A stretch of DNA of 64,000 nucleotides from an uncultured Alphaproteobacteria bacterium. GTDB lineage: Bacteria; Pseudomonadota; Alphaproteobacteria; RF32; CAG-239. A program made the translations under genes and the position numbers. Positions 46,856 to 60,216 of this stretch are shown here, piece by piece; position 1 is the first letter of the stretch; each line of letters opens with the position of its first letter. The stretch lies in assembly GCA_944391375.1 (NCBI GenBank), contig CALXTJ010000002.1, positions 82-64,081 of the forward strand. The letters run 5' to 3'. Below the pieces are notes generated by a model. The model was given only the letters and a program-made list of their open reading frames with translations. It was not told the origin of the DNA and did not search any database.

Positions 46856-47314
46856 ATGATCATTAAACTGCAGAATGTTTTGTTTGTATTGGGAGTTACT
46901 TTTGTTATACAACTGCTATATATGTTGTTGATGTTTATAATTTTTTTATTAAATAACAATCTAGCAGTTAATAATGAAGAGCTTTTTTTATTTGTTTTGG
47001 ACAATGTTTTATTTGTATCCATAGCCTTAGGAGCCATTAACCTATTTAGTAATAGGTTGTCTTTATATATTTACGAAAAAAGTATAAAAAAAATACCTAA
47101 TTTACGGTGGTATTGTATGTTCTTTAGCTGGACTGTCATTATCCAAAAATTCATACCCGAATTTGAAATCTTTTATGCTGTTTTAATAAGTTGTATAGTT
47201 GGTGCATTGTGTTATCCTGATCGTACCTGGAAACAAAGAGTTAGATATTCATTGATATTTGTTGCTATTTTATTGATGTATTTCTTGGGAGGTTTTACCG
47301 ATTTTGAAAATTAA
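46856..47314 (+). CDS. small polytopic membrane protein (candidate cognate/immunity-like gene of orphan module)
   Basis: 4 TM helices, immediately downstream of 46159..46788. Confidence 0.35.
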   Translation: MIIKLQNVLFVLGVTFVIQLLYMLLMFIIFLLNNNLAVNNEELFLFVLDNVLFVSIALGAINLFSNRLSLYIYEKSIKKIPNLRWYCMFFSWTVIIQKFIPEFEIFYAVLISCIVGALCYPDRTWKQRVRYSLIFVAILLMYFLGGFTDFEN

Positions 47315-47371: not shown

Positions 47372-47496
47372 GGGATAGGGAAACCGCTCTCAAAGCGGAC
47401 AAAAACGGCGTATTTAATGACAAAATCGGACACTTTCGGACGGTTCCGGACACTTTCGGACATAATCGGACAGTTTCGGACACTTTCGGACTGGAC
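47372..47496 (+). repeat. conserved leader plus 7 phased 10-bp tandem units CGGACNNTTT, copy 3
   Basis: Units at 47427-47496: CGGACACTTT, CGGACGGTTC, CGGACACTTT, CGGACATAAT, CGGACAGTTT, CGGACACTTT, CGGACTGGAC. Confidence 0.7.
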
Positions 47497-47567: not shown

Positions 47568-47601
47568 TATATTTTAACTTAAACTAAAATTTTAACAACA
47601 A

Positions 47602-47632
47602 ATACCGAAGCTCATAACTTCGGTATTTTTTT
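47602..47632 (+). terminator. conserved stem-loop ATACCGAAG-CTCATAA-CTTCGGTAT plus T7, copy 2 (attenuator/terminator-like, directly before RBS of 47657)
   Basis: Perfect 9-bp stem plus T-run, between the promoter and the gene. Confidence 0.5.
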
Positions 47633-47656: not shown

Positions 47657-48379
47657 ATGACAAATAAAAAATATAATCCATTTGCGGATATGTATAACTT
47701 CAATGCCAACAGCAGTAACTGGGTGCAAAGGTTAGGATATAATGCGGATTTTTATAATAATCCGCTGGGCTATAACAGCTCTCCCACCCCCAGACCTTAT
47801 AAAATCGCCAGTAATGATATACCAGTGGTAAATAACAATAAAAAAGTTGATTACTCAGCTTATGGAGAGGGTTTTAGTAAAGAATTTATTGATAAGATGC
47901 TTGATGATAAACGTTTCAATAATATCATGAACAGTAGAGTAATAAATAACGAAGGTGGATACGTTAATCATCCTAATGATTTAGGAGGTGAAACAAAATA
48001 TGGGATTACTAGTAGATGGTATCCTAATGAAGATATAAAAAACCTAACAAGAGAAAGGGCTAATGCTATTTTATACAGAGACTATTGGCAAAAAACAAAT
48101 ATTCATCAACTTCCCGATGAATTTGCCGATATTGTTTTTGATGACAGCATTGTTCAAGGACAGCCAACAGCTATTAGAAATTTACAAAAAGCTTTGGGTG
48201 TTAATGATGATGGTATCATCGGTCCCAAAACATTAAAAGCATTTCAGCACCAAAATCACAATATTATACGAACAAAATTTATAAAAAATGTTAATGATGT
48301 TGAAAATGAAAATATAAAGAACAACCCTTCTCAAAAAGTTTTTGAAAAGGGTCATAGAAACAGATTTAACGCTTATTAG
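47657..48379 (+). CDS. cassette protein with conserved N-terminal module plus GH108-like lysozyme domain and PG_binding_3-like domain
   Basis: N-terminal 48 aa shared with 41623. GGYVNHPNDLGGETKYGIT resembles the GH108 signature (EGGYVNDPxDxGGxTxxGIT). C-terminal ...ALGVNDDGIIGPKT resembles a peptidoglycan-binding domain. Confidence 0.6.
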   Translation: MTNKKYNPFADMYNFNANSSNWVQRLGYNADFYNNPLGYNSSPTPRPYKIASNDIPVVNNNKKVDYSAYGEGFSKEFIDKMLDDKRFNNIMNSRVINNEGGYVNHPNDLGGETKYGITSRWYPNEDIKNLTRERANAILYRDYWQKTNIHQLPDEFADIVFDDSIVQGQPTAIRNLQKALGVNDDGIIGPKTLKAFQHQNHNIIRTKFIKNVNDVENENIKNNPSQKVFEKGHRNRFNAY

Positions 48380-48837
48380 TTTCTAGCTAATATTGACCTA
48401 ATTATAGTTGATATATAATTTTTTAGTGCTTCAGTTGTGGCGTATTCGCTATATAAATAAGGTGAAACGCCACAATTATTTTTACGGCAATAGTTAGTTT
48501 CATTATATACAAATAAATAGTTGTCATACATATAATTATCATACTGATTAAGGCGTTCCCTTGCTTCTCTGTCAGATAAATTATAGTATTCTGTTATAAT
48601 TATTTCACCTACATCTTTATAGCAATCTCTGGTTTTATGATGTAAATCAATTAAAAAGTTATAACATTTCATACTCCAAGTTTCAGGGCATGTTGTACTT
48701 TGTTTAGTAAATTCATCAGAACATTTTATAAAATCATCATCTAATTTATTTATAGAGGATGATATTTCAGCACTAACACTGGTTGCAGACATTAAAAAGC
48801 TCAAAAGAGAAATAATGTATATTTTTTTCATAATCAA
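48376..48837 (-). CDS. secreted Cys-rich periplasmic protein, convergent with GH108 gene (candidate immunity protein)
   Basis: Signal peptide MIMKKIYIISLLSFLMSATSVSA, 8 Cys residues, RBS AAGGA. Its stop overlaps the 47657 gene's stop. Confidence 0.4.
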   Translation of the reverse strand: MIMKKIYIISLLSFLMSATSVSAEISSSINKLDDDFIKCSDEFTKQSTTCPETWSMKCYNFLIDLHHKTRDCYKDVGEIIITEYYNLSDREARERLNQYDNYMYDNYLFVYNETNYCRKNNCGVSPYLYSEYATTEALKNYISTIIRSILARN

Positions 48838-48958
48838 TTATCCTTATGCATAAAACCGACGAAGAAAGTTTAGATTTAATCCATAATATAAGCAACAACT
48901 TTTATAGTTAAAGCACAAGAAAATAATATTTTAACTCAAACTAAAATTTTAACAACCA

Positions 48959-48989
48959 ATACCGAAGCTCATAACTTCGGTATTTTTTT
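48959..48989 (+). terminator. conserved stem-loop ATACCGAAG-CTCATAA-CTTCGGTAT plus T-run, copy 3, directly before RBS of portal gene
   Basis: Identical to the element at 47602. Preceded by the shared block TTAACTCAAACTAAAATTTTAACAACCAAT. Confidence 0.5.
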
Positions 48990-49008: not shown

Positions 49009-50787
49009 ATGTTCGCATATACTCTTGAAAAAGAAAGCTTTATGTCAACGGGAAATCCCGATGATAAGCGGGCAGTAGTTCAAGATGTGGTGGATTTATT
49101 CACATCTTGGGATACTGTTCGTACCAAACAAAAAAATATTGCCGATAAGTTGCATTCGGAAATCTATCTGGATGACCGAAAAAAAACTTATGTCCCGGAA
49201 GATGACGAATGGAAATCGGATATCCATCTTAATAAAATCTATTCGTTATTCCAAACACATCAGGCCTACATTTGGGATAATATCTATTCTAATGTGGAAA
49301 ATATGTTTGATGTTGAAGGAATTGATGATCTTTCGGCACAAACGGCTTTGTTGCAAAAACAAAAACTGGTTAATACCTTTTATAATATCGGTATTCAACG
49401 CAAGCTGGATACCGCTATTGAGCATTTAGACAGTGTCGGTGAAATTTGTTTGTTTATCGGTTGGCAAAAAAAATATAAACAAATCCGCCGTCGTTTGGAT
49501 AAATTCAGCTCCTCTGCCGATAAGCCCTTGCTTACTCAAGGCTTGTTCGGGGTGTTTAATCAGGAAATTTATAACGGAGCCGATGTTGAGGCCATCAACC
49601 CGCTCAATTTGGTATTTGACCCCAGGGTTAATCCCGACGATAAGGAAAAATGGGATGCCTGTGGTAAAATTATTAAATCATGGGAAACTTATCAGTCGGT
49701 AGCTTCCAATAAATTGTATAATCTTAAAAAAGAAGAGCTTGATGATTTGCATAAAATGTTAAACTCTCCTTCCAAAGATGAAGATCGTTCGGAAACCGAT
49801 AAAACCGATGATGTGGTTGATAGCGATAGGGTTGAGGTTTTACAATATTGGGGGGATTATGTTACCCCCAAAGGCAATGTTTTAAAAAACTGGCATATCG
49901 TAGTTATCGGTCGTAAATATCTGGCGGTGTTTGAACCTAATCGCTGGGTAATTAACCCGATTATCAATATGGCTTTGTTTAGGGATATCAACAGTAAACG
50001 AGGTATTCCCGAATTATGGTCCATTTACGATATATGTAAGGAACAGGAAAATAAAGTAAACTTACAAAATGATGCTCAATCACTTAACCTAAATCCTCCG
50101 GCCTATGCTCCGGAGGGTTTTTTTAAGGAGGAAAAAGTAAAACTCTTCCCCGGTAAACAAGTGGAATACAAACAGGGTCTTGAAGATCCCGGAGCAATCA
50201 TCAAAATGCAGTTTCCGTTGTTCAGCAATGAAAATATTATTCAGTATTATGACAATACGGCTTCAAGCGTAAGCGGTATTTTTCCCAATATGCAGGGACA
50301 ACAGGAAATAAGCAAAGCCACGGCCACCGAAATAAGCATTAAGGTTCAGGGACAAACCACGCGTTTGGGTAAAACTTTGGATACCATCAAGCAAAATGTT
50401 ATTGTCCCGATGGTGCAAAAAGTTGCCGAACTTGAAGCTAATATGAAATTCGGCGATGAGGTTTTAAAGCTTAACATTTTGGGGTATCCGGTTACCAAAA
50501 CCATTGATGATGTGGTGCGTCAGGGCAATTATGAATATCGTTATACCGATAATACCGGTATTCAGAAAAAACTTAACACCAATCAAACGCTTATTCAGAT
50601 TTTTACGCAAATCTGGAATGATGAAAGCGTCCCCTTAAACAAACTGCAAATTGTTAAAGAAGTACTGCGTAATGCCGGCATAGAAAATACCGAAAAGTTT
50701 TTTCTAAGCCAAAATCAAATTCCGGCAGCCAATCAAAATACAGCGGCTGCCGGTGTCAACAATAATCTTTTACCCGTTCAAAAGTAG
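49009..50787 (+). CDS. putative phage portal (head-to-tail connector) protein
   Basis: 592-aa protein heading a module with scaffold-like and capsid-like genes in podovirus order. Assigned from size, position and composition only. Confidence 0.45.
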   Translation: MFAYTLEKESFMSTGNPDDKRAVVQDVVDLFTSWDTVRTKQKNIADKLHSEIYLDDRKKTYVPEDDEWKSDIHLNKIYSLFQTHQAYIWDNIYSNVENMFDVEGIDDLSAQTALLQKQKLVNTFYNIGIQRKLDTAIEHLDSVGEICLFIGWQKKYKQIRRRLDKFSSSADKPLLTQGLFGVFNQEIYNGADVEAINPLNLVFDPRVNPDDKEKWDACGKIIKSWETYQSVASNKLYNLKKEELDDLHKMLNSPSKDEDRSETDKTDDVVDSDRVEVLQYWGDYVTPKGNVLKNWHIVVIGRKYLAVFEPNRWVINPIINMALFRDINSKRGIPELWSIYDICKEQENKVNLQNDAQSLNLNPPAYAPEGFFKEEKVKLFPGKQVEYKQGLEDPGAIIKMQFPLFSNENIIQYYDNTASSVSGIFPNMQGQQEISKATATEISIKVQGQTTRLGKTLDTIKQNVIVPMVQKVAELEANMKFGDEVLKLNILGYPVTKTIDDVVRQGNYEYRYTDNTGIQKKLNTNQTLIQIFTQIWNDESVPLNKLQIVKEVLRNAGIENTEKFFLSQNQIPAANQNTAAAGVNNNLLPVQK

Positions 50788-50799
50788 AAAGTATTTATC

Positions 50800-51000
50800 G
50801 TGGATTTAATAGAACTTCGTGAACTGATGCGTTCCGAAAAGGGTCGGCTGTTGTTATGCTACCTTACGGATTTTATGGTTGAAGTTTCCACCCGCGGTAA
50901 TGCCAACGCCGAATGGATAAAAGGTATGGGCATGCTTATCAATCATTTAAAAGAAATTGATGAAATATGCCAAAAATTAAATGAAGAAAAAAGGAGATAA
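50800..51000 (+). CDS. small hypothetical phage protein
   Basis: Short ORF between the portal and scaffold genes; GTG start. Confidence 0.2.
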   Translation: MDLIELRELMRSEKGRLLLCYLTDFMVEVSTRGNANAEWIKGMGMLINHLKEIDEICQKLNEEKRR

Positions 51001-51002
51001 AA

Positions 51003-51992
51003 ATGACAATTAAAACTAAATCAACACCTTCACAGCGTTTGACGGATAACTCCTCTGATATATTTGTTGCGGATACCTCTCTAAAAGAGCCTGAAGCAGT
51101 ATATCAAGAGCCCGTAAGCGATGCTATGGAAGCTGATGTTAATGATAAAGCCTTGGAAGATGGCGGTCTTATCTTTGGTAAGTTTAAGACCATGGAAGAG
51201 GCTCAAAAAGGCTATAAAGAGGCGGAACGAGCCATCACGAGAGCCGCCGATTTGGAAAAAGAACTGCAAAACTACCAGTATCTTTCCAAAGCTTATGAAG
51301 AAGATGCCATAGCTAGGCAGAACGGTTATTCCGATCGTTTGGAAATGGCACTTAATCATGATGTAAAGCAACATGAACTTGACAGTTATGCCTTGGCGGC
51401 AAGCCATACATTACCGTATCAGGCTCAGTTGGAAGTTGCTCAATTGATAAATATGTGCCGTCTTGGCGGTACGGAAAAGGAATTCAACCTTTTACGGCAG
51501 TATTTTCCGCCGCAAGTGGTAGCATTGGTTTCCGAAGATGCGGCTTTATACAAAAATTCGCGTCAGGGCGAGTTTGATAATATCCGCAGTAACGATAAAG
51601 CCATTCGTTATGCTCGGAAATTGCATGAATTCCGCAATCAAAACGAGAGTTGGTTTGATTCTCCCTTAAAAGAAGACCTTATAAATCAGGCTCTGGAAGT
51701 CTCGGACGGCAGAGTAGATTTAAACGGGCTTAAAAAAATGGCCGATGCCGTAGTGGAAGAAGCTCTCAAAAAATATCAAACCGGTCAGGATACGGCGTAT
51801 CAAAATGCTCTGATGCAAGACAGTTTGCAAACTCCGGGCAATGATAACACGCGTATCAAAAACAAAAAATGGCTTACCAAGGATGAGTACTACAAACTCA
51901 CTCCGGCACAGGAAGCCGAAAAATATGATTTAATCGTGGAACAGGTTTTGCTTGAAAAACAAGGCAAGTTACCGCGTATGTTAACCAAATAA
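51003..51992 (+). CDS. putative capsid scaffolding/assembly protein
   Basis: Acidic, helix-rich, low-complexity 329-aa protein between portal and capsid. Confidence 0.4.
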   Translation: MTIKTKSTPSQRLTDNSSDIFVADTSLKEPEAVYQEPVSDAMEADVNDKALEDGGLIFGKFKTMEEAQKGYKEAERAITRAADLEKELQNYQYLSKAYEEDAIARQNGYSDRLEMALNHDVKQHELDSYALAASHTLPYQAQLEVAQLINMCRLGGTEKEFNLLRQYFPPQVVALVSEDAALYKNSRQGEFDNIRSNDKAIRYARKLHEFRNQNESWFDSPLKEDLINQALEVSDGRVDLNGLKKMADAVVEEALKKYQTGQDTAYQNALMQDSLQTPGNDNTRIKNKKWLTKDEYYKLTPAQEAEKYDLIVEQVLLEKQGKLPRMLTK

Positions 51993-52016
51993 TTTAATTT
52001 TTGAAAGGAAAAAACT

Positions 52017-52955
52017 ATGTCAACAAATGCAGAAACTTTAAACAGACAATTATCCGCCATTATTCCCGAAGTATGGAGTATGTCTTTAACCAAAGGTTTG
52101 GATAAATCCGGTGTGGGAATGAAGGTAGTTAATCGTATTCACGAAGCCGATACTCACGAATACGGCGATACCGTAAACATCGGTGAATTGGGTGATGTAA
52201 CTATTTCCGATTACTCGGAAGATGTATCCTCAGGCGGTGTAAATTACCAAAGAATTGATGCCAAAAATCAGCAATTAAAGCTTGATCAAAGCAAGGCTTT
52301 CGGTATTTTTGTTTCCGATATCAGCAACAAACAGGGCAACATTAAAGACTTGCAGTCTAAAATTGAAGCCAAAGCCAAAACGGCAATTGATTTGGCCAAA
52401 GATACCTATATTCTTTCGGCATTTTCGGAAATTCCTGAGGAAAACAAACTGGATAACATTACTTTAACTCCTGATAATGCTTATAAGTGCTTGGTATGGT
52501 TGTCTAAGACCTTAAAGAACAATAACGCCGTTCAACTTAAAAACGATCAGGTGTTTAAGTCCAATCAAGCCGGCGGCGATGCCATGCCGTATGTAATAAT
52601 CAATCCGGATGTTGAAGCAATTTTATTGCAATCACCCGATTTTATTCATGCTACCCAAGCCGGCGACAGAGTGTTGCGTGAGGGTTCAATCGGTACCATT
52701 GCCGGATTGGATGTTTTGGTATCCACCAACTTGCCGACAACCGAGAAAAAAGTCAACATTATGGCCGGTATCAATGATGCCATTGCCTTTGTGGGCAATA
52801 TTTCGCATATTGAAGCCATTCGTGATGAAAAATTCTTCGGCACCAATATCCGCGGCTTATATGTTTACGGTAAAAAAGTAGTTTTACCGAAAGCCTTAGC
52901 CGGTATGACGGTAGATGTAAGTGCTGCTGATTCCATTGTGGAAGCTGCAGCTTAA
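52017..52955 (+). CDS. putative major capsid protein
   Basis: 312-aa protein after the scaffold, strong RBS, followed by a strong terminator hairpin. Assigned by position and size. Confidence 0.45.
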   Translation: MSTNAETLNRQLSAIIPEVWSMSLTKGLDKSGVGMKVVNRIHEADTHEYGDTVNIGELGDVTISDYSEDVSSGGVNYQRIDAKNQQLKLDQSKAFGIFVSDISNKQGNIKDLQSKIEAKAKTAIDLAKDTYILSAFSEIPEENKLDNITLTPDNAYKCLVWLSKTLKNNNAVQLKNDQVFKSNQAGGDAMPYVIINPDVEAILLQSPDFIHATQAGDRVLREGSIGTIAGLDVLVSTNLPTTEKKVNIMAGINDAIAFVGNISHIEAIRDEKFFGTNIRGLYVYGKKVVLPKALAGMTVDVSAADSIVEAAA

Positions 52956-52995
52956 CATTAAAATAGAGTCATATAAATCCTTTCGTTATAAAAAA

Positions 52996-53030
52996 CAGAG
53001 GACGCAATGTAAATTGCGTCCTCTGCTGGT
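52996..53030 (+). terminator. intrinsic terminator after capsid gene (CAGAGGACGCAAT-loop-ATTGCGTCCTCTG)
   Basis: 13-bp perfect stem with a weak T-run. Confidence 0.5.
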
Positions 53031-53062
53031 TTAAAGGAAAAATGTTTTGAGGAGAAATAAAA

Positions 53063-53293
53063 ATGGCATCGGAAATTGCAGATAAAGTTTTAGGCAAAAA
53101 GACCGATAACTTTACAAAAAACGATAAATATCTGACCGCCGATTGCATATGGCAGGTTTATAAAACCGGCTGTGGCAATAGCCGCGTCAACGGGTTAATG
53201 GCAGCCGAAATGCTAAGTCCGGAAGGTAAGAAAAAAGCCAGAAGAGGCATTAAAAAAATTACTGACAAAGACTTTGTTTTTGAGCGGCAATAA
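53063..53293 (+). CDS. small hypothetical phage protein
   Basis: ORF with RBS GAGGAG. Confidence 0.25.
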   Translation: MASEIADKVLGKKTDNFTKNDKYLTADCIWQVYKTGCGNSRVNGLMAAEMLSPEGKKKARRGIKKITDKDFVFERQ

Positions 53294-53308
53294 TAAAAAG
53301 GAGGAAAG

Positions 53309-53974
53309 ATGAAAACCTATTTTGATATTATACGCGATGTATCCAATTTAAGATGGTCGGTAGTTGATACCGATCCTTCATCTTTTGCGGAAGTTCAAAA
53401 AGCCGTAAAGTTAGCAATACAACAGGCTAATAGCTATATTTGGGGATTGGATAATTTTCCGTTTAAGGTAAAAAAAGAGGCTTTTAAGATTAACAAAGGG
53501 CAGTCGGCATTACCGGCACCTAAAGGCAGTATTGTTAATATTTGGCTTGATGGTTCCAATACATATTTGGAAGAAATCAGTCAGGAAAAAGCCGATTTTC
53601 TTTCGGGAGAAGAGAAGGGTAAGCCGGTGTGTTTTTGGATAGAATTCGGAGATGATGGCGCCGAAGTGCATTTTTATCCCAAGGCTTCCGAAGACTGCAC
53701 CATGTTAATCCGTTATATAACTAACTGTAAGGCCAGAGCCCAAGACGGCACTTTAAAAGCCAACTTATCGGATATGGACGATGTATTAAACTTGCCTGAC
53801 GACAGTGTGATAGAGGACTTGTTTTTGCATTGTTTAAATACCAAGGCAATGGAGTATTTAATTGCCGATACCAATGATGAAAACTATCAGCCCTATCAGA
53901 AAGAATTTGCGGAAGCTTATTCGTCGTTATTATGTTTTAGCGGGGTTAAGCATAATCCTCGTTTAATAGTTTAG
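53309..53974 (+). CDS. virion structural protein, possibly tail tubular/adaptor-like
   Basis: Size and position match T7 gp11-type proteins; only weak pattern similarity. Confidence 0.3.
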   Translation: MKTYFDIIRDVSNLRWSVVDTDPSSFAEVQKAVKLAIQQANSYIWGLDNFPFKVKKEAFKINKGQSALPAPKGSIVNIWLDGSNTYLEEISQEKADFLSGEEKGKPVCFWIEFGDDGAEVHFYPKASEDCTMLIRYITNCKARAQDGTLKANLSDMDDVLNLPDDSVIEDLFLHCLNTKAMEYLIADTNDENYQPYQKEFAEAYSSLLCFSGVKHNPRLIV

Positions 53975-53984
53975 GGAGGCGGCC

Positions 53985-55574
53985 ATGCTAAACACACTGT
54001 TTATTGATAATTTTCGGGGAATTCGCAAATTTAATCCGGTGGCAGATTTGCTATCAAGCGGAGTGGTTTCGGCCTTAAACTGTCAAAATGTAGAGCTTAC
54101 CAATACCGAACACAGTAAAAATTTAGCCATTTTTACGGCCAAAGGCAACAAAGCGGTTAAAGATATCGGGCAAAAAGTTGTCGGACAGTTTGAAAGTATT
54201 CAAAACGGGACATCTTATTGGTTTATATATGCCACGGACGATACAAGAGGGTATCTTTACACTTTGGGAACCGATAATGAGCTGACGCTTTTAGATGTAA
54301 ATTTATCGGTAAGTGATGATTGTAACGGTATTACCATTGCCCAAGGTTATAACGACTGGTTTGTATTTACCAACGGTGTGGATGATTATTTGGGAGTTTG
54401 TATGTCGCAAGCAGCTCCTGAAGACCGTATTAAATTTTTGAATGCAACCGATGCCGAAGGGCGAGATATCAGAGGCTTAGGGCTTGAAGTTCAGGACGGA
54501 AGATTGGTAACCTTTTGCCAAAATCGGGTTCATTGGTCAGGACAATCCAACATTTTTGACTGGATATCAAGCGATGAAGAGTTGCTTACGGCTCCGGCAT
54601 ATCAGGAGTTTGATCGTGATGTAACGGCCATTACTCTTTACAATGATATGTTGATAGCCTTTACCGATGAGTATTCCACTTATTTTAAGGGCAATCCCGG
54701 AGATGCAAGTACCTTCACCCGAGGCGGAGCTTCTGGCGGAGGGTGTCCGTCGTTTCGTTCGGTAATCAAGTTTGATAACAAGCTTTTTTATTACGATAAC
54801 AAAGCCAAAAATGTTTTTGCTTATTACTTAATGGACAGCGGACAAACGCGTCCGAGTGAAGGGCTTGCCAATAATGTCATTTCTTATTTTGAAGAAATTG
54901 ATGAAAGTAAATTAAATAAAATAGAAATGGTAAGTTATATCCACGGTAATAAAAGTGAGATATGGCTTAAATTTCCCTCAACAGAGAGGAATGTAATTTT
55001 AATTTACGATTATTTGAACGGCGAATGGTGTGAACGTGTTGCTCAAGCCGATATTCACGGATTAAGCCTGATAAAGGGCGGATTATATTCACTGTCCGGA
55101 ACTAAGGTCTTAAAAGAATATGTCGGTTCTACATTTGATGGGGAATATATACCTTCGGAATATAAGACCAACATCATCAACCTGCAAAGCGACAGTAACA
55201 TCAAAGTGCCGAAAATGCCTTTGATTTTAACCTTGGATTTTGACTGTGAAAACGACTTTTATATGGAGTTTATCTACGATGATATGCCTAAAAAAAGCCG
55301 CACATTTCATATTGTTAAAATGATGAAAGGTTACTTGATTTGGGCAAACTCTACAGCAGATGAAAAAGGCGGTCTTTGGAGTTTGGATGCATCAGATGAA
55401 AACGGCGGCATGTGGGTAAGTTCGGATAAAAACACCGTAATGTTTAACTTGGCGGGAGTTTTACCGTTTAAGCAGTTGCAGATACGAATTTTTACCAAAG
55501 ACAGTCCGCAAGAGTTTGCCGTTAAACGGCTGGAATTCAAACGCGTCGGCTTAAAAACCAAAAGCCTGGGTTAA
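53985..55574 (+). CDS. large virion structural protein (tail/nozzle-like)
   Basis: 529-aa protein in the structural gene run. Confidence 0.3.
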   Translation: MLNTLFIDNFRGIRKFNPVADLLSSGVVSALNCQNVELTNTEHSKNLAIFTAKGNKAVKDIGQKVVGQFESIQNGTSYWFIYATDDTRGYLYTLGTDNELTLLDVNLSVSDDCNGITIAQGYNDWFVFTNGVDDYLGVCMSQAAPEDRIKFLNATDAEGRDIRGLGLEVQDGRLVTFCQNRVHWSGQSNIFDWISSDEELLTAPAYQEFDRDVTAITLYNDMLIAFTDEYSTYFKGNPGDASTFTRGGASGGGCPSFRSVIKFDNKLFYYDNKAKNVFAYYLMDSGQTRPSEGLANNVISYFEEIDESKLNKIEMVSYIHGNKSEIWLKFPSTERNVILIYDYLNGEWCERVAQADIHGLSLIKGGLYSLSGTKVLKEYVGSTFDGEYIPSEYKTNIINLQSDSNIKVPKMPLILTLDFDCENDFYMEFIYDDMPKKSRTFHIVKMMKGYLIWANSTADEKGGLWSLDASDENGGMWVSSDKNTVMFNLAGVLPFKQLQIRIFTKDSPQEFAVKRLEFKRVGLKTKSLG

Positions 55575-55597
55575 TTTTAAATAAAGAGGAGGCAATA

Positions 55598-55810
55598 ATG
55601 AAAAAAAAGGCAACCGGCAAAGTAAGTTATCAGCCTTCGGAAAGTTTTGAGCAGTTAAACAAGCTACAAGAAATGGCAATTTCGCAAGAAAATGTAAGTT
55701 TGGCATTAAAAGCGGAAGAGCTCAAAGGCAAGCTTGCCGGATTGTATAGCGATAAAAAAGAGGCTGAAGAAGTTGATACGACGCCTCTTGAGATAAAAAT
55801 CATCAAATAG
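55598..55810 (+). CDS. small hypothetical phage protein
   Basis: ORF with RBS AGGAGG. Confidence 0.25.
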   Translation: MKKKATGKVSYQPSESFEQLNKLQEMAISQENVSLALKAEELKGKLAGLYSDKKEAEEVDTTPLEIKIIK

Positions 55811-55822
55811 GAGGTTGGTAAA

Positions 55823-56224
55823 ATGGTAGTTTTAATAGAAAAAGACAGTCCTTTTTTTGAAAGGCAGAAAGCCAAAGAGCTATTTGAAGCCAATCGGGAA
55901 AATTTGGATGATGAAAACGGGTTTGAGGGCATATTAGCCAACAGCCGTTTTTTTAATGTCTATCAACACGGTTATATCGGCTCCGGGTTTGTATATCAGG
56001 GAGCCGACGATAATCGCAATTATTTGGGTGGATATATGCTGCGAAAACATCATAAAGAAGCGGTGGAGGCCATTAAGCAAATCTGTTCGCTTTTTGATGA
56101 AGTTTACGCCCATACCCGCCATGTAAATGCGGTTATAGCCTTAAAACGAGCAGGTTTTAAGTGGTATGATCGCAACAAAAAATTGTTAGTTAAGAAAAAC
56201 AAAATCAAGAAAGGAGAAAAATAA
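55823..56224 (+). CDS. hypothetical phage protein
   Basis: ORF with RBS GGAGG. Confidence 0.3.
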   Translation: MVVLIEKDSPFFERQKAKELFEANRENLDDENGFEGILANSRFFNVYQHGYIGSGFVYQGADDNRNYLGGYMLRKHHKEAVEAIKQICSLFDEVYAHTRHVNAVIALKRAGFKWYDRNKKLLVKKNKIKKGEK

Positions 56225-56916
56225 TGTCAAGTAATGTAAAAGCCAAACCGCAAACCTTTTCAAGTTCAGGTTTATACGGAACGGCAACCACCAATAAAAA
56301 CGGAACAACTTATAATCCGAGTAATTTTGAAAAACAGCTTGTGGGAATGACCACGCAGTATATTCCGCAGTATTTGCAGCAGCTGGTAAACCCGACATAT
56401 GACAGTGAGGTTTTTAAGGCCCAGACCACGCAAAGGAACAGACTTGCCAATCAAAGCTTTGAAAACAATTTAATAAATCCGCTGTCGCAAAGAGGTTTGA
56501 CCAGAGGTTCAAGCGTTAATCAGATGAGTAACCAGTTTGCCAACAAATTGGCTGATTTGGAGACAGATGCTATGGCCAATGAGGATACGCGTAATGCCAA
56601 TATGTTGAATAACTTGTTTAATTACTATCAAGTGCCATACGGTATAATGATGGGCATGTCCGATTTCAGCAATCAGCAATATCAGAGTGCCGTTCAAAAT
56701 GCCTTAAAACAGAATGAGTTAAATAATAAAGCATTAAAAACTTGGGCAACTTCATTGGGCAATATGTCGGGATTTGGAGCTGGTCAAGGAGACAACTCAT
56801 CCGGCATGGGCTGGGGAGGCTTAGTAGGCACCGGCCTTGGTTATGCACTCGGAGGTCCGGCAGGAGCATCAGTTGGTTCCATATTTGGCAATCAATTGGG
56901 CAATTTGTGGAAATAA
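56224..56916 (+). CDS. Q/N-rich protein with C-terminal glycine-zipper hydrophobic segment (internal virion/membrane-active protein?)
   Basis: C-terminus GWGGLVGTGLGYALGGPAGASVGSIFGNQLG carries a GxxxG repeat pattern. Confidence 0.35.
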   Translation: MSSNVKAKPQTFSSSGLYGTATTNKNGTTYNPSNFEKQLVGMTTQYIPQYLQQLVNPTYDSEVFKAQTTQRNRLANQSFENNLINPLSQRGLTRGSSVNQMSNQFANKLADLETDAMANEDTRNANMLNNLFNYYQVPYGIMMGMSDFSNQQYQSAVQNALKQNELNNKALKTWATSLGNMSGFGAGQGDNSSGMGWGGLVGTGLGYALGGPAGASVGSIFGNQLGNLWK

Positions 56917-56983
56917 CAGTAAAATTAAGAATAAAACTCCGCTTATTAAAAGCGGAGTTTTAAATTTTTAAAGGAGATAAAAA

Positions 56984-58096
56984 ATGGCAGATACCAATTT
57001 AGTGTATCCGTATGAGTTCCAGGGAGGAACAAAGGCTGTTGCATCGGAAGTAAATGCCAACTTTGAAGCGGTCAGAAACTTTGCCGGAGGTATCAATGCA
57101 ACGCTTGATGAATTGCGTAGTGCAATTGCGGATTTAAAGAATAAGCCGACACGGGAGATGTTTGATATTTATTACAGTTTTTCAAGTAACACTCCGGCCG
57201 GAGCATATCCGTTATGGACGGGGGAGACCATAACTCACTGTAAAAGTTTATATCCGGATTTTTGGAACAAATTAAACAATCTGGTAAGTTTGGGTAATGT
57301 TGTGAGTGTAACTCAAGAGGAATATGAAGAAAAGCTGGAGGAGTACGGGCAATGTGCCGGTTTTTACATAGATAGTTTAAACGGGCATGTCAGATTGCCG
57401 AAAATTACGCGTTTTATTTCAGGAATTGATGAGTTGAGTCAATTAGCAGCTGAGGAAAACGCAGTAAATACGGCTCATACACATAATTTAAAGGCCTATA
57501 CCGGATCTGGTAACCGCAATGCTTCAGAGGAAAGATATTTAGGCTCGGGGACCGATAACTCAAAATCGGATATGTTCTGGAGCGATACGACTGATGTTGA
57601 AAACACGGCAGCGGTCGTAAGCCAAGGCGAAGAAGAGGGGCATCCTAAAAATGTGCGTTTATGCCTGTATATTCAGGTTGCCAATAATTTAGGAGAGTTA
57701 TCAGAACTTGATACCAATGCTATTGCCAAGGAGCTTGAAAGCGGATTGATTGCCTTGGAAAATGCTTATAGTACATATAGCACCGAATTAAACAGCTTAT
57801 ATTCCAAGGTCAAGGCCGATATTTTAAATTCTTCGCCGGTAGTCAAAGATGTAAGTTTGACGGTAACACCGGAGATGTTTAAGAGCGACGATACATACAA
57901 GGACTATCCGTACAGTGCCGATATTGAGTTTGAAGATGCCTCATCCGAACTTATTCCGACGGTAAATTTTAATTTAGCAGAAAGTCAAAGTGATAATTAT
58001 GCACCTGTAGCGGAAAGTTTGGACGGGTTTGTCAGGATATATGCCAAGCAAATACCGGAACAAAGCTTTGAGATAGCTTCAATTGTACTGCAATAG
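56984..58096 (+). CDS. putative tail fiber/receptor-binding protein
   Basis: 370-aa protein at the end of the structural run, before the lysis genes. Confidence 0.3.
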   Translation: MADTNLVYPYEFQGGTKAVASEVNANFEAVRNFAGGINATLDELRSAIADLKNKPTREMFDIYYSFSSNTPAGAYPLWTGETITHCKSLYPDFWNKLNNLVSLGNVVSVTQEEYEEKLEEYGQCAGFYIDSLNGHVRLPKITRFISGIDELSQLAAEENAVNTAHTHNLKAYTGSGNRNASEERYLGSGTDNSKSDMFWSDTTDVENTAAVVSQGEEEGHPKNVRLCLYIQVANNLGELSELDTNAIAKELESGLIALENAYSTYSTELNSLYSKVKADILNSSPVVKDVSLTVTPEMFKSDDTYKDYPYSADIEFEDASSELIPTVNFNLAESQSDNYAPVAESLDGFVRIYAKQIPEQSFEIASIVLQ

Positions 58097-58099
58097 AGA

Positions 58100-58140
58100 T
58101 TATGCCGCATTTTAGCTAATGCGGCATAAGTTTTGTAAAA
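58100..58140 (+). terminator. intrinsic terminator (TTATGCCGCATT-loop-AATGCGGCATAA plus GTTTT)
   Basis: 12-bp perfect stem. Confidence 0.55.
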
Positions 58141-58151
58141 AGGAGAGAAAA

Positions 58152-58409
58152 ATGGATTTTTTAAACTTACTGGGAGCGATGTCGGGGTGTGCCTCAATCG
58201 TGTCTTTTTTGGCTTTAGTAATAAGGCTTGGGGAGTGGAAGGCCCGCCATGAAGAGCGATTGGCAAGCCAGGGCAAACGCATTGACGGGATAGAGATAAA
58301 GCAAGATTCTCTATCATTATTATTAAACAAAAACAACGAGATATTAGCAGAAATTAAAGTAAAAGTTGACTTAATGCACAAGGAAAAAAATAAAAGGAGC
58401 AAACAATGA
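58152..58409 (+). CDS. putative holin (single TM plus charged coiled-coil tail)
   Basis: MDFLNLLGAMSGCASIVSFLALVIRL TM helix, RBS AAAGGAGAGAAA, overlaps the endolysin start by 4 nt. Confidence 0.4.
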   Translation: MDFLNLLGAMSGCASIVSFLALVIRLGEWKARHEERLASQGKRIDGIEIKQDSLSLLLNKNNEILAEIKVKVDLMHKEKNKRSKQ

Positions 58410-58876
58410 TAGATGAAGAAGAAATCATAAGAAGATTGATATTACATGAAGGTATGAGATTGGAGGCGTACAAATGTTCCAACGGATATTTAACCATAGG
58501 CGTGGGCCGAAATTTAATAACCAATCCTTTAAGTAAAGAGGAACAAGAGCATATCGGAGACTGGAGCAAGGGAATAAGCCGAGAAGATGCAATATACTTG
58601 TTAAGGAATGATATTAAAAGACTGATAAGAGAGTGCCGAGAAAAAATAAGCTGTTGGAGAGGATTGGATGCGGAGCGAAAATATGCCCTTTTGGATATGG
58701 CGTTTAATTTAGGGATAACCGGCTTGTTAAAGTTTAAGAAGATGTTGCATGCGTTATCAATCGGTGATTACCGCGGAGCCGCCAAAGAATGTTTAAATTC
58801 CAAATACGCCAAGGATGTAGGAATAAGAGCGGTCAGAATAGCTCATACATTGGAAACGGGGAGGTTTGAAATATGA
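58406..58876 (+). CDS. phage lysozyme (GH24, T4/P22-type endolysin)
   Basis: EGMRLEAYKCSNGYLTIGVGRN matches T4L [21 protein letters not shown]. The catalytic Glu is present; the Asp20-equivalent is Cys. Confidence 0.7.
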   Translation: MIDEEEIIRRLILHEGMRLEAYKCSNGYLTIGVGRNLITNPLSKEEQEHIGDWSKGISREDAIYLLRNDIKRLIRECREKISCWRGLDAERKYALLDMAFNLGITGLLKFKKMLHALSIGDYRGAAKECLNSKYAKDVGIRAVRIAHTLETGRFEI

Positions 58877-59031
58877 TAAAGAAAAAAGAACATAGTTGTA
58901 AATATCAGTTACGAAGAGAAATTATTCATAAACTAAGTAGGTGGCAATTATTTTGGCTATGTGTGTTGTTTTTGGTGGTAATGGGAATAATCGGAGTTTT
59001 TGCCCCGAGTGCCATAATCGGAATTTTATAG
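58873..59031 (+). CDS. small TM peptide (52 aa) overlapping endolysin stop; possible lysis accessory (spanin/antiholin-like)
   Basis: MIKKKEHSCKYQLRREIIHKLSRWQLFWLCVLFLVVMGIIGVFAPSAIIGIL; below the ORF-track cutoff. Confidence 0.2.
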   Translation: MIKKKEHSCKYQLRREIIHKLSRWQLFWLCVLFLVVMGIIGVFAPSAIIGIL

Positions 59032-59121
59032 GTTGTGTAAGATTAAAAATAAGATTTACAAATCAAAAAATACATGATTTAATCACAACATATTCAGAAT
59101 ATTCCGAGAAGGGAAATAAAT

Positions 59122-59574
59122 ATGAAGATATTCTTGCAACAGGCTTGTGTGCTGGGAGGATTTTATTTTATTGCATCGGTCATTTTAGGCAAAATGCCGC
59201 AAGTTGATTTTGTGGTATGGCTGGAGTGGCTGCTTGTGGTAGCGTTAATTGCAATACTTATGGTTCTTGCTTTCAAAAAAAAGTTAGGATTTATGGAAAA
59301 ATTTGTCGGCAAATATGCAAAAATCAGCAATTATCTGGCAGCATTGGGCGTAGCGTCATATTTCGGATTTTTCTTCGGTTTTATTCCCGGAGCCATAGAC
59401 GGTTATTTTGCCGCTCAAGCAAGTTTTATGCAACAAATATATGTATCTCAGTTTGTCAGTTATTTACCGATTTTTACGGTTTTATACAGGGTGGTATTTT
59501 GGACGGCATTATTGCTGGCAACATACTTAAGCTTTATTAAGCCGTGGATTTACAAGGAAGATAACAAAAATTAA
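59122..59574 (+). CDS. 4-TM membrane protein, paralog 1
   Basis: Shares GGFYF and IPGAIDGY motifs with 59623..60171. Confidence 0.4.
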   Translation: MKIFLQQACVLGGFYFIASVILGKMPQVDFVVWLEWLLVVALIAILMVLAFKKKLGFMEKFVGKYAKISNYLAALGVASYFGFFFGFIPGAIDGYFAAQASFMQQIYVSQFVSYLPIFTVLYRVVFWTALLLATYLSFIKPWIYKEDNKN

Positions 59575-59622
59575 GGATTATGTACAACACTCAACCATTA
59601 ACTGTAAAAATAAGGAGGAAAT

Positions 59623-60171
59623 ATGCGACAGTTTATTAAAGAGTCTCTTTTGTTGGGAGGATTTTACTTTTTTATTTCATACATAGTATGTTATTTGGCC
59701 GGTAATGATGCATGGAAGTGGAGTTTGGCAATTATTACGATTTTATTGATTACGGTAATAATATTAGCTTTCAAGAAGTCTTTTGCCCCGTTGGCTAAGT
59801 TCTGGAAAAAGTATCCAAAAATTTCCACATATTTGGCAGGTCTGGGTGTCGTAAAATACTTTAGTATTGTTTTTGGGGGAATTCCGGGAGCGATTGATGG
59901 TTACTTAATGGTAACGGCAACAGATATTGCGTGGTATGAGGAATATTTTGCGGCATATATGCCGACCTTTATTTTTGTTTATTGGTTAGTATTTTGGTGT
60001 TGTTTGTTCGGTGCTACATATTTGGCGTTTTTCTCAGACATTAAGCTGGTTAAGATAATAGAAGTTCCGGTTAAAGCCGAGAGTAAAGATGTAGCAAAGA
60101 GTCAATCCAAGGCTCACAAAAAAGCCAATCACAAAAAAGCTAATCACAACAAAACAGCTAAAAAGAAATAA
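59623..60171 (+). CDS. 4-TM membrane protein, paralog 2, with Lys-rich C-terminal tail
   Basis: Tandem duplicate of 59122..59574; RBS AAGGAGG. Confidence 0.4.
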   Translation: MRQFIKESLLLGGFYFFISYIVCYLAGNDAWKWSLAIITILLITVIILAFKKSFAPLAKFWKKYPKISTYLAGLGVVKYFSIVFGGIPGAIDGYLMVTATDIAWYEEYFAAYMPTFIFVYWLVFWCCLFGATYLAFFSDIKLVKIIEVPVKAESKDVAKSQSKAHKKANHKKANHNKTAKKK

Positions 60172-60190
60172 ATTAAGTTAAAAACAAAAA

Positions 60191-60216
60191 ATCCCGCTTG
60201 ATGCGGGATTTTTTGT
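60191..60216. terminator. bidirectional intrinsic terminator (ATCCCGC-TTGAT-GCGGGAT flanked by A and T runs)
   Basis: Lies between the convergent 59623 gene and ugd. Confidence 0.55.

Follow-up and report, generated by a model that had tools for sequence, protein, structure and literature searches.

What does a phage-like block of head, short-tail and lysis genes encode when no large terminase (TerL) lies beside it? The question is posed by positions 49009-60171 of a 64-kb stretch (the window) of contig CALXTJ010000002.1 from an uncultured Alphaproteobacteria bacterium. A first-pass annotation had offered three readings: a decayed prophage, a domesticated particle like a gene transfer agent (GTA), or a particle specialised to carry the proteins of an adjacent cassette array. 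The second is the best supported. Comparative sequence analysis suggests that these positions hold, rather more probably than any other kind of element, the operon for structure and lysis of a short-tailed P22-like phage that has been domesticated, a GTA-like ‘viriform’ kept as a host locus by a clade of uncultured gut Alphaproteobacteria. It would be a GTA-like element of podovirus type, possibly with effector cargo.

The stretch encodes a portal, a scaffold-position protein, an HK97-type capsid protein, an adaptor, a P22-gp10-like nozzle, a fibre-like protein, a holin candidate and a GH24 lysozyme (Table 1). The gene order, coordinates and absences given in the first-pass annotation were borne out, with three corrections. 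Its portal and capsid calls are supported by PHROG and Pfam family matches: portal homologues carry PF23899 (SU10_portal), and the capsid protein is ~30% identical to annotated capsid genes in 365 phage records, while its AF2 model, though poor, matches only HK97-fold capsids and encapsulins. The short-tail layout finds support in the nozzle, whose AF2 model (pLDDT 88, pTM 0.86) matches podovirus tail nozzle/hub proteins, the best PDB matches being Pa223, Pan3, VP1, P22 gp10, Sf6 gp8 and T7 gp12 (Foldseek E 5e-18 to 1e-9); the protein also matches phrog_578 ‘head closure Hc3’ (E 1e-4). The fibre match is weak, and holin and scaffold are assigned by position and composition, the scaffold-position protein having no family match in Pfam or PHROG.

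Table 1 Features of the module and of the neighbouring cassette array (window positions)
Feature	Coordinates	Strand	Evidence or remark
Cassette protein, 182 aa, truncated, no effector domain	41623-42171	+	‘NtA’ N-terminus MTNKKYNPFADMYNF... and big2-like region
Multi-TM DUF805-like candidate immunity protein	42244-42783	+	PF05656, E 2e-5; paralogue at 44135-44671
Orphan C-terminal fragment, SAA-like effector	43018-43185	+	Matches NtB-SAA C-termini in L015-L017
Small membrane/secreted proteins	43291-45965	+	271-aa TM, 178-aa DUF805-like, 86-aa TM, 174-aa with signal peptide
Orphan cassette, 209 aa	46159-46788	+	Starts within big2-like region, without NtA; C-terminal domain common to NtB-type proteins
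152-aa TM protein	46856-47314		3' of orphan cassette
NtA(1-48)-GH108 muramidase-peptidoglycan-binding protein, 240 aa	47657-48379	+	PF05838, E 2e-21, and PG_binding domains
153-aa secreted protein	48376-48837	-	Signal-peptide-like N-terminus; kept beside effector in L001
Terminator-like hairpin and U-run	48958-48984	+	Ends ~12 nt 5' of portal RBS
Portal, 592 aa	49009-50787	+	PHROG head-tail adaptor/portal families, E 2e-21 and 8e-15
66-aa conserved protein	50800-51000	+	In all relatives; function not assigned
Scaffolding protein (by position/composition), 329 aa	51003-51992	+	Helical, acidic; P22 gp8 position; conserved
Major capsid protein, HK97-fold, 312 aa	52017-52955	+	phrog_267, E 1e-34; PF25209 in homologues
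Strong stem-loop 3' of capsid gene	52997-53030	+	No U-run on + strand
76-aa protein	53063-53293	+	Position of P22 orf69
Head-tail adaptor, 221 aa	53309-53974	+	PF24175 SU10_adaptor (weak) in homologues at 54% identity
Tail nozzle/hub, 529 aa	53985-55574	+	Predicted beta-propeller like P22 gp10 (AF2, Foldseek)
g70, 70 aa, small-terminase C-terminal relic	55598-55810	+	Homologous to sister small-terminase residues 94-163
133-aa virion-module protein	55823-56224	+	Homologue in complete phages
230-aa N/Q-rich protein	56224-56916	+	C-terminal glycine-zipper segment; P22 gp7 position
Fibre-like protein, 370 aa	56984-58096	+	phrog_27381 tail fibre, weak, E 6e-5
Holin candidate	58119-58409	+	One TM segment; by position/composition
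GH24 (T4-type) endolysin	58406-58876	+	PF00959, E 2e-14
52-aa TM protein and two paralogous 4-TM proteins (59122-59574, 59623-60171)	58873-60171	+	Module end
Bidirectional terminator	60184-60216		Precedes ugd

The order of portal, scaffold, coat, stem-loop, small ORF, adaptor and nozzle is that of P22 and Sf6, where small proteins, large proteins at the ejection-protein position and a fibre or spike likewise follow, and the modelled nozzle fold matches P22 gp10/Sf6 gp8. The ‘strong terminator’ reported 3' of the capsid gene is indeed a strong stem-loop, though one lacking the U-run of a terminator on the + strand, and the annotation of P22 places a stem-loop there too. The 230-aa protein is a candidate ejection/pilot protein. 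Beyond weak PHROG matches, however, there is no detectable sequence similarity to P22 or Sf6; the capsid protein has 312 rather than 430 aa, the locus has no terminase, and two large proteins are deleted or replaced. No homologue of the gp26 tail needle was found in the element. This, and the missing large proteins of the ejection-protein position, which bear on DNA passage across the recipient envelope, count against our preferred explanation.

As the first-pass annotation had stated, the window lacks TerL, integrase, repressor and replication genes. Tblastn with a related TerL gave no match in the 64 kb at E ≤ 0.01, and Pfam scans of essentially all large ORFs returned housekeeping genes only, with no integrase, phage repressor or replication gene among them. 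The suggested search for att repeats yielded no direct repeat of ≥11 nt linking the element's edges, and the sole tRNA of the window lies at 15.5 kb.

The missing terminase, integrase, replication and regulatory genes, together with the abrupt edges, are what would be expected of an ordinary defective prophage that had lost its left half and was decaying, and the repeat-rich neighbouring array could have caused such deletions. Yet the same short module is kept in at least 15 gut alphaproteobacterial species-level genomes, and all short-form loci (with g70, without the big1 and big2 genes described below) form one clade in the portal tree. Each of the 16 ORFs is intact, dN/dS against the L020 locus lies at 0.02-0.24, and no stop codon occurs in any orthologue examined. 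The site is also the same in diverged hosts, with ugd as right-hand neighbour in the window, L001, L020, L032 and L033, and the clade has innovations of its own in g70 and a leader hairpin. The module is therefore not a decaying prophage as far as we can judge; this reading is contradicted by clade-wide conservation and strong purifying selection, and we consider it very unlikely.

Complete sister (pro)phages fall outside this clade in the portal tree, with L032 and L033 basal within it. In the sisters, TerS-TerL abut the portal gene, and two extra large genes, big1 and big2, lie between the genes for the 230-aa and 370-aa proteins, the latter being 56% identical to a 375-aa protein 3' of big2. 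The basal loci L032 and L033 read repressor, DUF6362, TerL, portal through to lysis and ugd, forming a unit of ~13.7 kb with host genes on either side and no integrase; in L032 a MuF_C-domain protein lies between TerL and portal. Three marks are the clade's own: g70, the loss of the two large virion proteins, and a terminator-like hairpin 5' of the portal gene.

The first of these marks qualifies the earlier statement that the window holds no small terminase: a full gene is indeed missing, but g70 is a relic of one. In the small terminase of the sister phages it matches the C-terminal part and no other, at 39-41% identity. PF03592 covers residues 39-123 of the sister protein (model positions 1-81), and g70 lacks the segment aligned to the N-terminal half of that family. 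Across the clade, of which g70 is the signature gene, its identity is 76-100%, with dN = 0 against L020. The hairpin (folding energy -11.8 kcal/mol, z -4.4) and its U-run occur 5' of the portal RBS in nine lineages including the window, at the same place with different sequences, and are absent from the complete phages. The portal's leader recurs at 47600-47628 and 44770-44798, each time before a cassette, and in variant form at 41573-41589.

That the system works without a terminase is probably an artefact of viewing one locus, since relatives and a second locus have TerL. In fuller relatives an S24 repressor, a DUF6362 protein and TerL lie directly upstream or past the cassette array, TerL either adjoining the portal gene or sitting 8 kb upstream. 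An intact repressor-DUF6362-TerL block is present in L020 and L052, with only the cassette array between it and the portal gene; the module's abrupt beginning after the array thus holds for the window, while the complete form in relatives reaches leftwards past it. The same five-gene block as in L020 and L052 is surrounded by unrelated host genes in L055, L056, L058, L059 and L060, its TerL being 92-93% identical in protein (dN/dS 0.04), which suggests that TerL is probably encoded elsewhere, as in known GTAs. Contigs with this second-locus block co-occur with window-type contigs; one of them and a contig 99.2% identical to the window come from the same metagenome, with coverage of 4.3x and 4.9x. 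The nucleotide divergence of TerL (about 80-85%) matches that of housekeeping genes of the two host species (82.6%), and contig counts of the TerL cluster about equal those of the capsid cluster. The window genome thus most probably carries its repressor-DUF6362-TerL block at a second chromosomal locus, a circumstantial link drawn from a single common metagenome, comparable coverage and the agreement in divergence. The absence of TerL and regulator from the window itself counts against our explanation. In L029, TerL is only a stub (aa 35-101) within 10 kb upstream of intact structural genes, so that DNA packaging may be dispensable in some lineages.

From the portal gene to that of the 133-aa protein, dS between the two host species is only 0.05-0.1; this half of the module is far more alike than the housekeeping genes, which indicates recent horizontal movement. 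Such movement would suit a phage satellite with a head and tail of its own that borrows terminase and missing virion proteins from co-circulating complete phages of its family, and complete sister phages, with TerL ~71% identical, do infect members of the same group of bacteria. The transfer is, however, just as well accounted for by homologous recombination at a conserved locus. The element occupies a fixed chromosomal site and has its own TerL in several genomes, and no integrase, att sites, replication genes or helper-interference genes were found. We regard a satellite as highly improbable.

The array at 41.6-48.8 kb appears to consist of polymorphic peptidoglycan-targeting effector genes with candidate immunity genes. 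Its cassette N-terminal region is, by sequence comparison, homologous to big2, a lost virion protein. In the 182-aa protein, the lineage-specific NtA segment accompanies a stretch with homology to the first ~140 aa of big2; residues 1-48 recur at 47657 and residues 62-110 at 46159. An HMM built solely from complete-phage big2 N-termini finds this protein at E 1.3e-3 (4e-15 on iterated search), its 92% identical L020 copy at E 1e-15, and the relatives' cassette proteins at E 3e-17 to 6e-14. From its gene order and glycine-rich composition big2 may itself be an ejection protein; profile comparisons with P22 gp16 and gp20 were not significant, a further point against our explanation. The domains attached to NtA/NtB-type N-terminal regions are GH108 with a PG-binding domain, SAA-like, Tlde1 and DUF6973, and the NtA-SAA protein, a fragment in the window, is intact in L020 and L044. 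The NtA-GH108 protein also matches the phrog_315 endolysin (E 2e-41). The small proteins at 43291-45965, which gave no Pfam matches, are candidate immunity proteins, as is the 153-aa protein for the GH108 effector. In L025, L029, L043 and L015-17, cassettes lie exactly between the 230-aa and 370-aa genes, the big2 slot, where L029 has a full-length NtB-big2 fusion. At least 10 domesticated loci have flanking arrays, and no complete phage does.

An independent bacteriocin locus of colicin or S-pyocin type, which uses the neighbouring lysis genes for release and whose proteins never enter a particle, could have a similar appearance: the NtA N-terminus is rich in N, G, S and P and has the disordered look of a bacteriocin translocation domain, and the peptidoglycan-targeting effectors come with small secreted or membrane proteins as partners. 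Furthermore, the GH108 protein, the window's sole complete effector, lacks the big2-like segment, which also counts against our own explanation. This reading nevertheless seems improbable, given that the region preceding the effector domains is homologous to a virion-protein N-terminus, that cassettes replace that protein in situ, that each NtA cassette has the portal gene's own leader, and that arrays were seen only beside the phage module in the loci examined. The same homology and slot occupancy lend real support to the idea of a particle specialised for cassette proteins, which stays conjectural.

A further reading is a DNA-free toxin-injection particle, with capsid and short tail serving only as container and syringe and a dispensable terminase in the course of being lost. 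The derivation of the cassettes from a virion protein whose slot they fill fits this, as do their occurrence beside domesticated loci but not beside complete phages, the lack of TerL in the window, its stub in L029, and the failure to find it in the available upstream flank of L021, L024-L028, L031 and L043. Set against these, g70, which has no known partner other than TerL, ranks with the best-conserved genes; an intact TerL is under purifying selection at the second locus; and the basal L032 and L033 have TerL and no arrays. In P22-like phages, moreover, DNA is packaged first and the tail attached afterwards. We judge such a particle unlikely.

The GTA-like reading suggests how the element may operate. 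In its fullest form a divergent LexA/CI-type S24 repressor, DUF6362, TerL and the terminator-like hairpin precede portal, scaffold, capsid, adaptor, nozzle, g70, two small virion proteins, fibre-like protein, holin and endolysin, with no integrase, replication or excision genes found in it. The DUF6362 protein occupies, in sister phages, the position of a late-gene regulator. Stress would cleave the repressor, allowing DUF6362 and TerL to be made, and the structural operon would then be transcribed through the leader hairpin. TerL and g70 would fill procapsids, probably with host DNA and without specificity, because g70 lacks the sequence-specific N-terminal part. Short tails would join, and holin and lysozyme would free the particles. 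Effectors, whose N-terminal region appears to derive from the ancestral big2 at the position of the P22 ejection proteins, might also be loaded and delivered to the recipient envelope, a step that we put forward tentatively.

RcGTA of Rhodobacter capsulatus and CcGTA of Caulobacter are likewise phage-derived head, tail and lysis clusters without replication or integration genes, inherited in a host clade under purifying selection, sometimes split over several loci, and released by lysis, as predicted here. They too have a small-terminase homologue without its N-terminal DNA-binding part, as reported for GTA small terminases (PMC6854486). They are, however, siphovirus-like and unrelated in sequence, whereas the present element is of the short-tailed P22 type; its full form includes a CI/LexA-type repressor, TerL is detached from or missing at the locus, polymorphic effector arrays lie alongside, and DNA packaging is putative. 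FpGTA of the gut bacterium Faecalibacterium is a podovirus-like GTA of ~10 kb split into two operons, one with TerL, portal, scaffold, capsid and a small terminase without an obvious DNA-binding domain, the other, ~125 kb away, with tail and lysis genes (PMC12946183). Compared by description only, it shares gut host, podovirus-like type and small-terminase form with our element; its terminase stays with the head genes and tail and lysis genes are detached, the reverse of the arrangement here, its host belongs to another phylum, and no effector arrays are reported for it.

MuF toxins of temperate phages join a phage-head-associated N-terminal part to variable C-terminal toxin domains, with small putative immunity genes downstream, and delivery during ejection has been proposed (PMC5576092). 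The cassettes resemble them in fusing a conserved virion-associated N-terminal part to variable toxin domains and in having small candidate immunity genes alongside. The carrier here is not MuF but the N-terminus of another virion protein, the predicted effectors target peptidoglycan, and where functional prophages have single genes, this domesticated element has arrays of several cassettes, orphan modules included. Tailocins (R/F-pyocins) and cf-PICIs are also phage-derived and host-retained, the former with SOS-type repressor control and lysis-dependent release, the latter encoding their own capsid. Neither description fits, as tailocins lack capsid and portal, and cf-PICIs carry integrase and replication genes but none for tails or lysis. 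It also counts against our explanation that, if the ancestral capsid size has been kept, the particle could, unlike classical GTAs, hold more than its own 11-14 kb locus.

The 16 ORFs between 49009 and 60171 all run in one direction, and PHROG and Pfam matches, a predicted nozzle fold and a P22-like gene order bear out the head, short-tail and lysis layout that the first-pass annotation had read there. The portal, HK97 coat, adaptor and beta-propeller nozzle that feature in the P22 virion are all present in the module, and the order is that of P22 gene for gene, including the stem-loop after the coat gene. No tail-needle homologue was found in the module. The large proteins big1 and big2, which lie at the ejection-protein position, are missing from the window, and just a 133-aa and a 230-aa protein are left there. 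The module is not a tailocin, which would have neither capsid nor portal: both genes are present and conserved.

The 529-aa protein has no annotation by sequence. Its AF2 model, built on an alignment of 33 distant homologues, is confident (pLDDT 88, pTM 0.86), and in structure it most resembles nozzle/hub proteins of short-tailed phages (Pa223, Pan3, VP1, Pam1, P22 gp10, Sf6 gp8, SU10 and T7 gp12; E 5e-18 to 1e-9). The predicted fold points to a podovirus-type tail nozzle. The nozzle alignment gave no significant match to a P22 gp10 profile, and a sequence search of the PDB with the nozzle, big2 and fibre-like proteins returned nothing significant. Among 50,697 phage records, neither the nozzle protein (tblastn) nor the DNA of 41.0–60.3 kb found a match. 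The capsid protein is ~30% identical to annotated capsid genes in 365 phage records. Its AF2 model is poor (pLDDT 53) because the alignment is shallow, and was used solely to note that every structural match is nonetheless an HK97-fold shell. Neither Pfam nor PHROG assigned a function to big1 or big2, or to the 76-, 133- and 230-aa proteins. By eye, the C-terminal half of the 133-aa protein is acetyltransferase-like (...AVIALKRAGFKW), with no family match. The lysis cassette is closed by two paralogous 4-TM proteins, 43% identical to each other. They are the fastest-diverging genes of the module, have no detectable homologue in three relatives' loci (L026, L032 and L033), and might be antiholin, superinfection exclusion or immunity proteins.

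Features of the module, the cassette array and the rest of the window, with the basis of each assignment
Feature	Size	Position (strand)	Basis or remark
Portal	592 aa	49009-50787 (+)	PHROG portal/connector families, E 2e-21 and 8e-15; PF23899 SU10_portal in homologues
Major capsid protein, HK97-type	312 aa		phrog_267, E 1e-34; PF25209 in homologues
Adaptor	221 aa		homologues match PF24175 SU10_adaptor, weakly
Nozzle/hub	529 aa		assigned by predicted fold
g70	70 aa	55598-55810	putative small-terminase relic
133-aa protein	133 aa	55823-56224	
GH24 lysozyme	156 aa	58406-58876 (+)	family match
Scaffold, holin, fibre-like protein			position, composition, one weak match
First 4-TM protein		59122-59574	
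Second 4-TM protein		59623-60171	
Leader hairpin, portal		48958-48984	
Leader hairpins, cassettes		47600-47628, 44770-44798, 41573-41589	
Orphan 5'-truncated cassettes		43018-43185, 46159-46788	
TCGGACACTT repeats, array spacers		42900-42965, 47426-47491, 46103-46176	
TCGGACACTT repeats, unrelated intergenic sites		33728-33765, 15316-15346	accB/639-aa gene gap; beside tRNA-Lys
ORF	884 aa	11778-14432 (-)	no Pfam match at the thresholds used
ORF	558 aa	16098-17774 (+)	no Pfam match at the thresholds used
ORF	639 aa	33845-35764 (+)	no Pfam match at the thresholds used

The first-pass annotation had also claimed that no terminase, integrase, repressor or replication gene lies in the 64 kb, and this stood. 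Scanned with Pfam and PHROG, the module and essentially all large ORFs of the 64 kb yielded no integrase, phage repressor or replication gene, and tblastn of the 64 kb with a related large terminase (TerL) gave no match. Att-like repeats were not found at the element edges, no tRNA flanks the module, and tRNA and Rfam scans of 40–61 kb gave nothing relevant. The gene set of a temperate prophage (integrase, att, immunity, replication, and terminase contiguous with the virion genes) is not present in the window, the remainder of which is housekeeping: murG, mnmA, lepB, rnc, era, a Mrp-type antiporter, birA, RNase J, accBC, recJ, ugd and others. Replication, integration and excision genes are absent from the module and also from the full unit of L032, a basal relative. 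A sigma-70 promoter scan found 56 sites, against 69 expected from shuffled sequence.

More than 300 homologues of the capsid protein, at 68–98% identity, occur in gut metagenomes and MAGs labelled Alphaproteobacteria. Loci gathered by exact-protein look-ups and one scan of species-representative genomes are of two types, complete (pro)phages and a short form. The complete (pro)phages have early genes, small terminase (TerS), TerL, a portal gene abutting TerL, a 69-aa gene, scaffold, capsid, adaptor and nozzle, followed by 132-aa and 198-aa genes, big1 (572–636 aa), big2 (531–887 aa), a 375-aa fibre-like protein and more. The short form has no big1 or big2, carries the extra ORF g70 after the nozzle gene, and continues through a 230-aa gene and the fibre-like gene to the lysis genes. 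The sister phages' big2 matched just two unannotated gut phage records. In the portal tree the short-form loci, about 15 of the 24 genome loci together with metagenomic loci, are monophyletic, and the complete phages fall outside. The short form occurs in at least 15 genomes, and this P22-like short-tailed element is widespread among gut Alphaproteobacteria, a poorly known group, of humans, rabbits, ruminants and birds. One contig titled Lachnospiraceae bacterium (L024, CAVBCV010000007.1) carries an alphaproteobacterial module with a portal identity of 74%, and is probably mis-binned. Contigs of 11.1 kb were considered as a free 11-kb element and rejected as such: they start 63 nt before the portal gene and stop within the final gene, a pattern that assembly breaks at variable flanks would produce.

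Compared with L020, a locus of a second host species, 16 of 16 module genes have dN/dS values of 0.02–0.24 and no stop codons, and more distant orthologues are likewise uninterrupted. The monophyly of the short form, these dN/dS values and the shared ugd flank show that the module is kept in the host lineage under purifying selection. The head, short-tail and lysis operon is conserved, selected and host-resident, and has no replication or integration genes of its own. The decayed prophage that the first-pass annotation had offered as one option is very unlikely, given that the short form is a single clade whose genes are intact and constrained. A satellite that borrows a helper's terminase is highly improbable, as the element lacks integrase and replication genes and occupies a fixed chromosomal site.

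The dS values against L020 are 0.05–0.1 from the portal to the 133-aa gene and 0.4–2 from the 230-aa gene on, with a sharp mosaic boundary at 56224 separating 49009-56224 from 56224-60171. The left half of the module and some cassettes (99% identical) are far closer between the two species than housekeeping genes are: head genes of the L020/L052 genome are nearly identical to those of the window, against 82.6% nucleotide identity in the accBC region. The locus has therefore been exchanged recently between species.

The ORF g70 is 39–41% identical to residues 94–163 of the sister-phage small terminase and ranks with the best-conserved genes in the module. PF03592 matches residues 39–123 of that terminase (model positions 1–81), so g70 retains the C-terminal part alone. 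From its sequence it would fit a GTA-type small terminase without the N-terminal DNA-binding domain, the loss of which has been proposed to render GTA packaging non-specific (PMC6854486).

Relatives encode, in addition to the operon, a repressor, DUF6362 and TerL. In two rabbit MAGs at the base of the short-form clade, L032 and L033, these form a compact ~13.7-kb unit with host genes on either side, in the order divergent HTH-S24 repressor, DUF6362, TerL, portal through lysis genes, and ugd, which is also the right-hand neighbour in the window. In the L020/L052 genome the repressor–DUF6362–TerL block is intact and parted from the portal by a cassette array of ~8 kb. The array begins directly after a host BOF gene, with no block, in the window and in eight or more further assemblies of the window's species. 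A detached block, consisting of a PLD-like gene, a small ORF, the S24 repressor, DUF6362 and TerL, is found on other contigs (L055, L056, L058, L059 and L060) beside unrelated host genes (aldo-keto reductase, glycogen genes), syntenic with the L052 block at ~80–83% nucleotide identity. Almost all TerL sequences in its cluster are full length, the dN/dS of this TerL is 0.04–0.08, and the TerL and capsid clusters are found on similar numbers of contigs. A single metagenome yielded, at similar coverage, both a detached-block contig and a contig 99.2% identical to the window, and the divergence between the detached and L052 blocks equals the housekeeping divergence between the two species. On this circumstantial evidence, the genome of the window probably encodes its terminase and regulators at a second locus.

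The short-form locus L029 is a counter-example, with just TerS and TerL fragments upstream of the array and an otherwise intact module downstream. Its TerL was apparently lost to cassette recombination, because these fragments are fused to a cassette ORF. At L029:1268-1731 the fused pieces come from TerL (aa 35–101) and a small terminase of the full type, and the cassette ORF is big2-like. Such a stub would suit a DNA-free toxin particle, a reading we consider clearly improbable because both g70 and the detached TerL are conserved. Several stages of domestication coexist: the complete phage, a compact unit that includes repressor and terminase, a terminase split off by an array, and a terminase that lies at a second locus or persists as a stub. 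The PLD-like (PLDc_2) gene and small ORF always lie beside the S24 repressor (L058:7274-11326, L052:5025-9377). The PLD gene is conserved (86% aa identity, dN/dS 0.09) and may belong to the system.

The cassette array at 41.6–48.8 kb has 28–35% G+C, against ~40% in the module. It contains proteins that share a lineage-specific N-terminus (NtA) and differ in their C-termini, together with orphan modules truncated at the 5' end and small proteins that are secreted or membrane-bound. Effector domains in NtA homologues are GH108, SAA-like, Tlde1 and unknown ones; proteins of other lineages with a different N-terminus (NtB) carry GH108 with PG_binding_3, SAA-like, DUF6973, lysozyme-like and unknown domains, and lipoprotein or TM ORFs, frequently in multiple copies, lie downstream of their genes. 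At the sequence level the array is consistent with a polymorphic-toxin architecture, with a constant N-terminal region and variable C-terminal effector domains. The small TM, lipoprotein or signal-peptide ORFs that follow effectors are candidate immunity genes without family matches.

NtA and NtB are each followed by a segment with homology to roughly the N-terminal 140 residues of phage big2. An HMM of big2 made from complete-phage proteins alone matches NtB proteins (E 3e-17 to 6e-14), the NtA protein of L020 (E 1e-15) and the 182-aa copy in the window (E 1.3e-3), which is 92% identical in DNA to that of L020. No protein of a complete phage was recruited when an iterated search was started from the NtB N-terminus; it is this segment, and not the lineage-specific N-termini, that links the cassettes to big2. 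At several loci (L025, L029, L043 and L015-17) cassettes sit exactly at the big1/big2 position of the phages. L029 has a full-length NtB–big2 fusion there, and the L015 and L016 arrays contain displaced big2 C-terminal fragments. By gene order big2 would correspond to the P22 ejection proteins gp20 and gp16, an assignment from position; its conserved N-terminus is glycine-rich, and its profile gave no significant match to either protein. The closest precedent for polymorphic toxins borne in phage heads is the MuF toxin family, from which the carrier region of the cassette proteins differs (PMC5576092). MuF (PF04233/PF06152) had no match in the window proteins, and the sole related match was MuF_C in L032. 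That domain (PF18819, E 2e-18) belongs to a 168-aa protein (L032:9218-9724) between TerL and portal, the position taken by the cassette array in L020.

A stable hairpin with a U-run lies 10–20 nt before the portal RBS in nine lineages (the window, L021, L025-L027, L029, L032, L033 and L043), constant in position and different in sequence. Complete phages have no hairpin at that portal-upstream position. In the window lineage the same hairpin–RBS leader also precedes every N-terminally intact (NtA) cassette. A hairpin fixed before the portal, duplicated before the NtA cassettes and missing in complete phages suggests control by antitermination. In the complete phage L018, DUF6362 holds the position of a late-gene regulator, and it may act on the leader hairpins. 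DUF6362 as the real small terminase was rejected as first choice because L018 has a separate small terminase (phrog_4102, E 1e-21) between it and TerL. Leader hairpin and DUF6362 together offer a concrete handle on the possible co-regulation of split phage-derived loci. An independent bacteriocin array that merely shares the lysis genes is decidedly improbable, in view of the big2 homology, the in-situ replacement of big2 and the shared leader.

We propose that stress would lead to cleavage of the repressor and expression of DUF6362 and TerL, after which transcription of the structural operon and the cassettes could pass through the leader hairpins. TerL and g70, devoid of the DNA-binding domain, would package host DNA without sequence specificity; tails would attach, and holin and lysozyme would free the particles. 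More tentatively, and somewhat less likely than not, effectors with a big2 segment would enter the heads, reach the recipient envelope, and breach peptidoglycan or kill non-immune cells. Killing is the favoured purpose because candidate immunity genes are present. Rather unlikely as a whole is a capsid-based effector-delivery machine, in which an N-terminal region derived from an ejection protein would load interchangeable peptidoglycan-degrading toxins and inject them into the periplasm of competitors, immunity genes would protect kin, and a trans-acting DUF6362 would co-induce the split loci by overriding the leader terminators. If true, this would give polymorphic toxins a new way to be trafficked and a domesticated phage a new use.

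To our knowledge, GTAs and domesticated phage particles come from few lineages, and until recently long-tailed forms alone were known. Like GTAs, the module is a structural cluster of phage origin with no genes for replication, integration or excision. Its maintenance under selection and its shortened small terminase are GTA features too, and the element may work like one. The closest precedent in kind is FpGTA of Faecalibacterium, by its description the first podovirus-like GTA, with two operons ~125 kb apart (PMC12946183). We found no published description of the present element in the literature searched. What is new here is a P22-like viriform of gut Alphaproteobacteria with a detachable terminase block, a clade-specific leader terminator and effector arrays from a virion protein. 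The locus ties polymorphic effector–immunity arrays to that virion protein, and, if the effectors travel in the particle, it would represent a new interbacterial weapon and a testable case of phage ejection-protein re-use.

A tandem repeat of the 10-bp unit TCGGACACTT, in 3–7 copies, occupies spacers of the array and also recurs at unrelated intergenic sites. Given the unit length, copies lie one helical turn apart; the repeats could be a protein-binding iteron array or a species-specific rearrangement-promoting repeat. Outside the array and module, three long ORFs had no Pfam match at the thresholds used, and the one of 639 aa differs between the two host species, its counterpart in L052 being 414 aa long.
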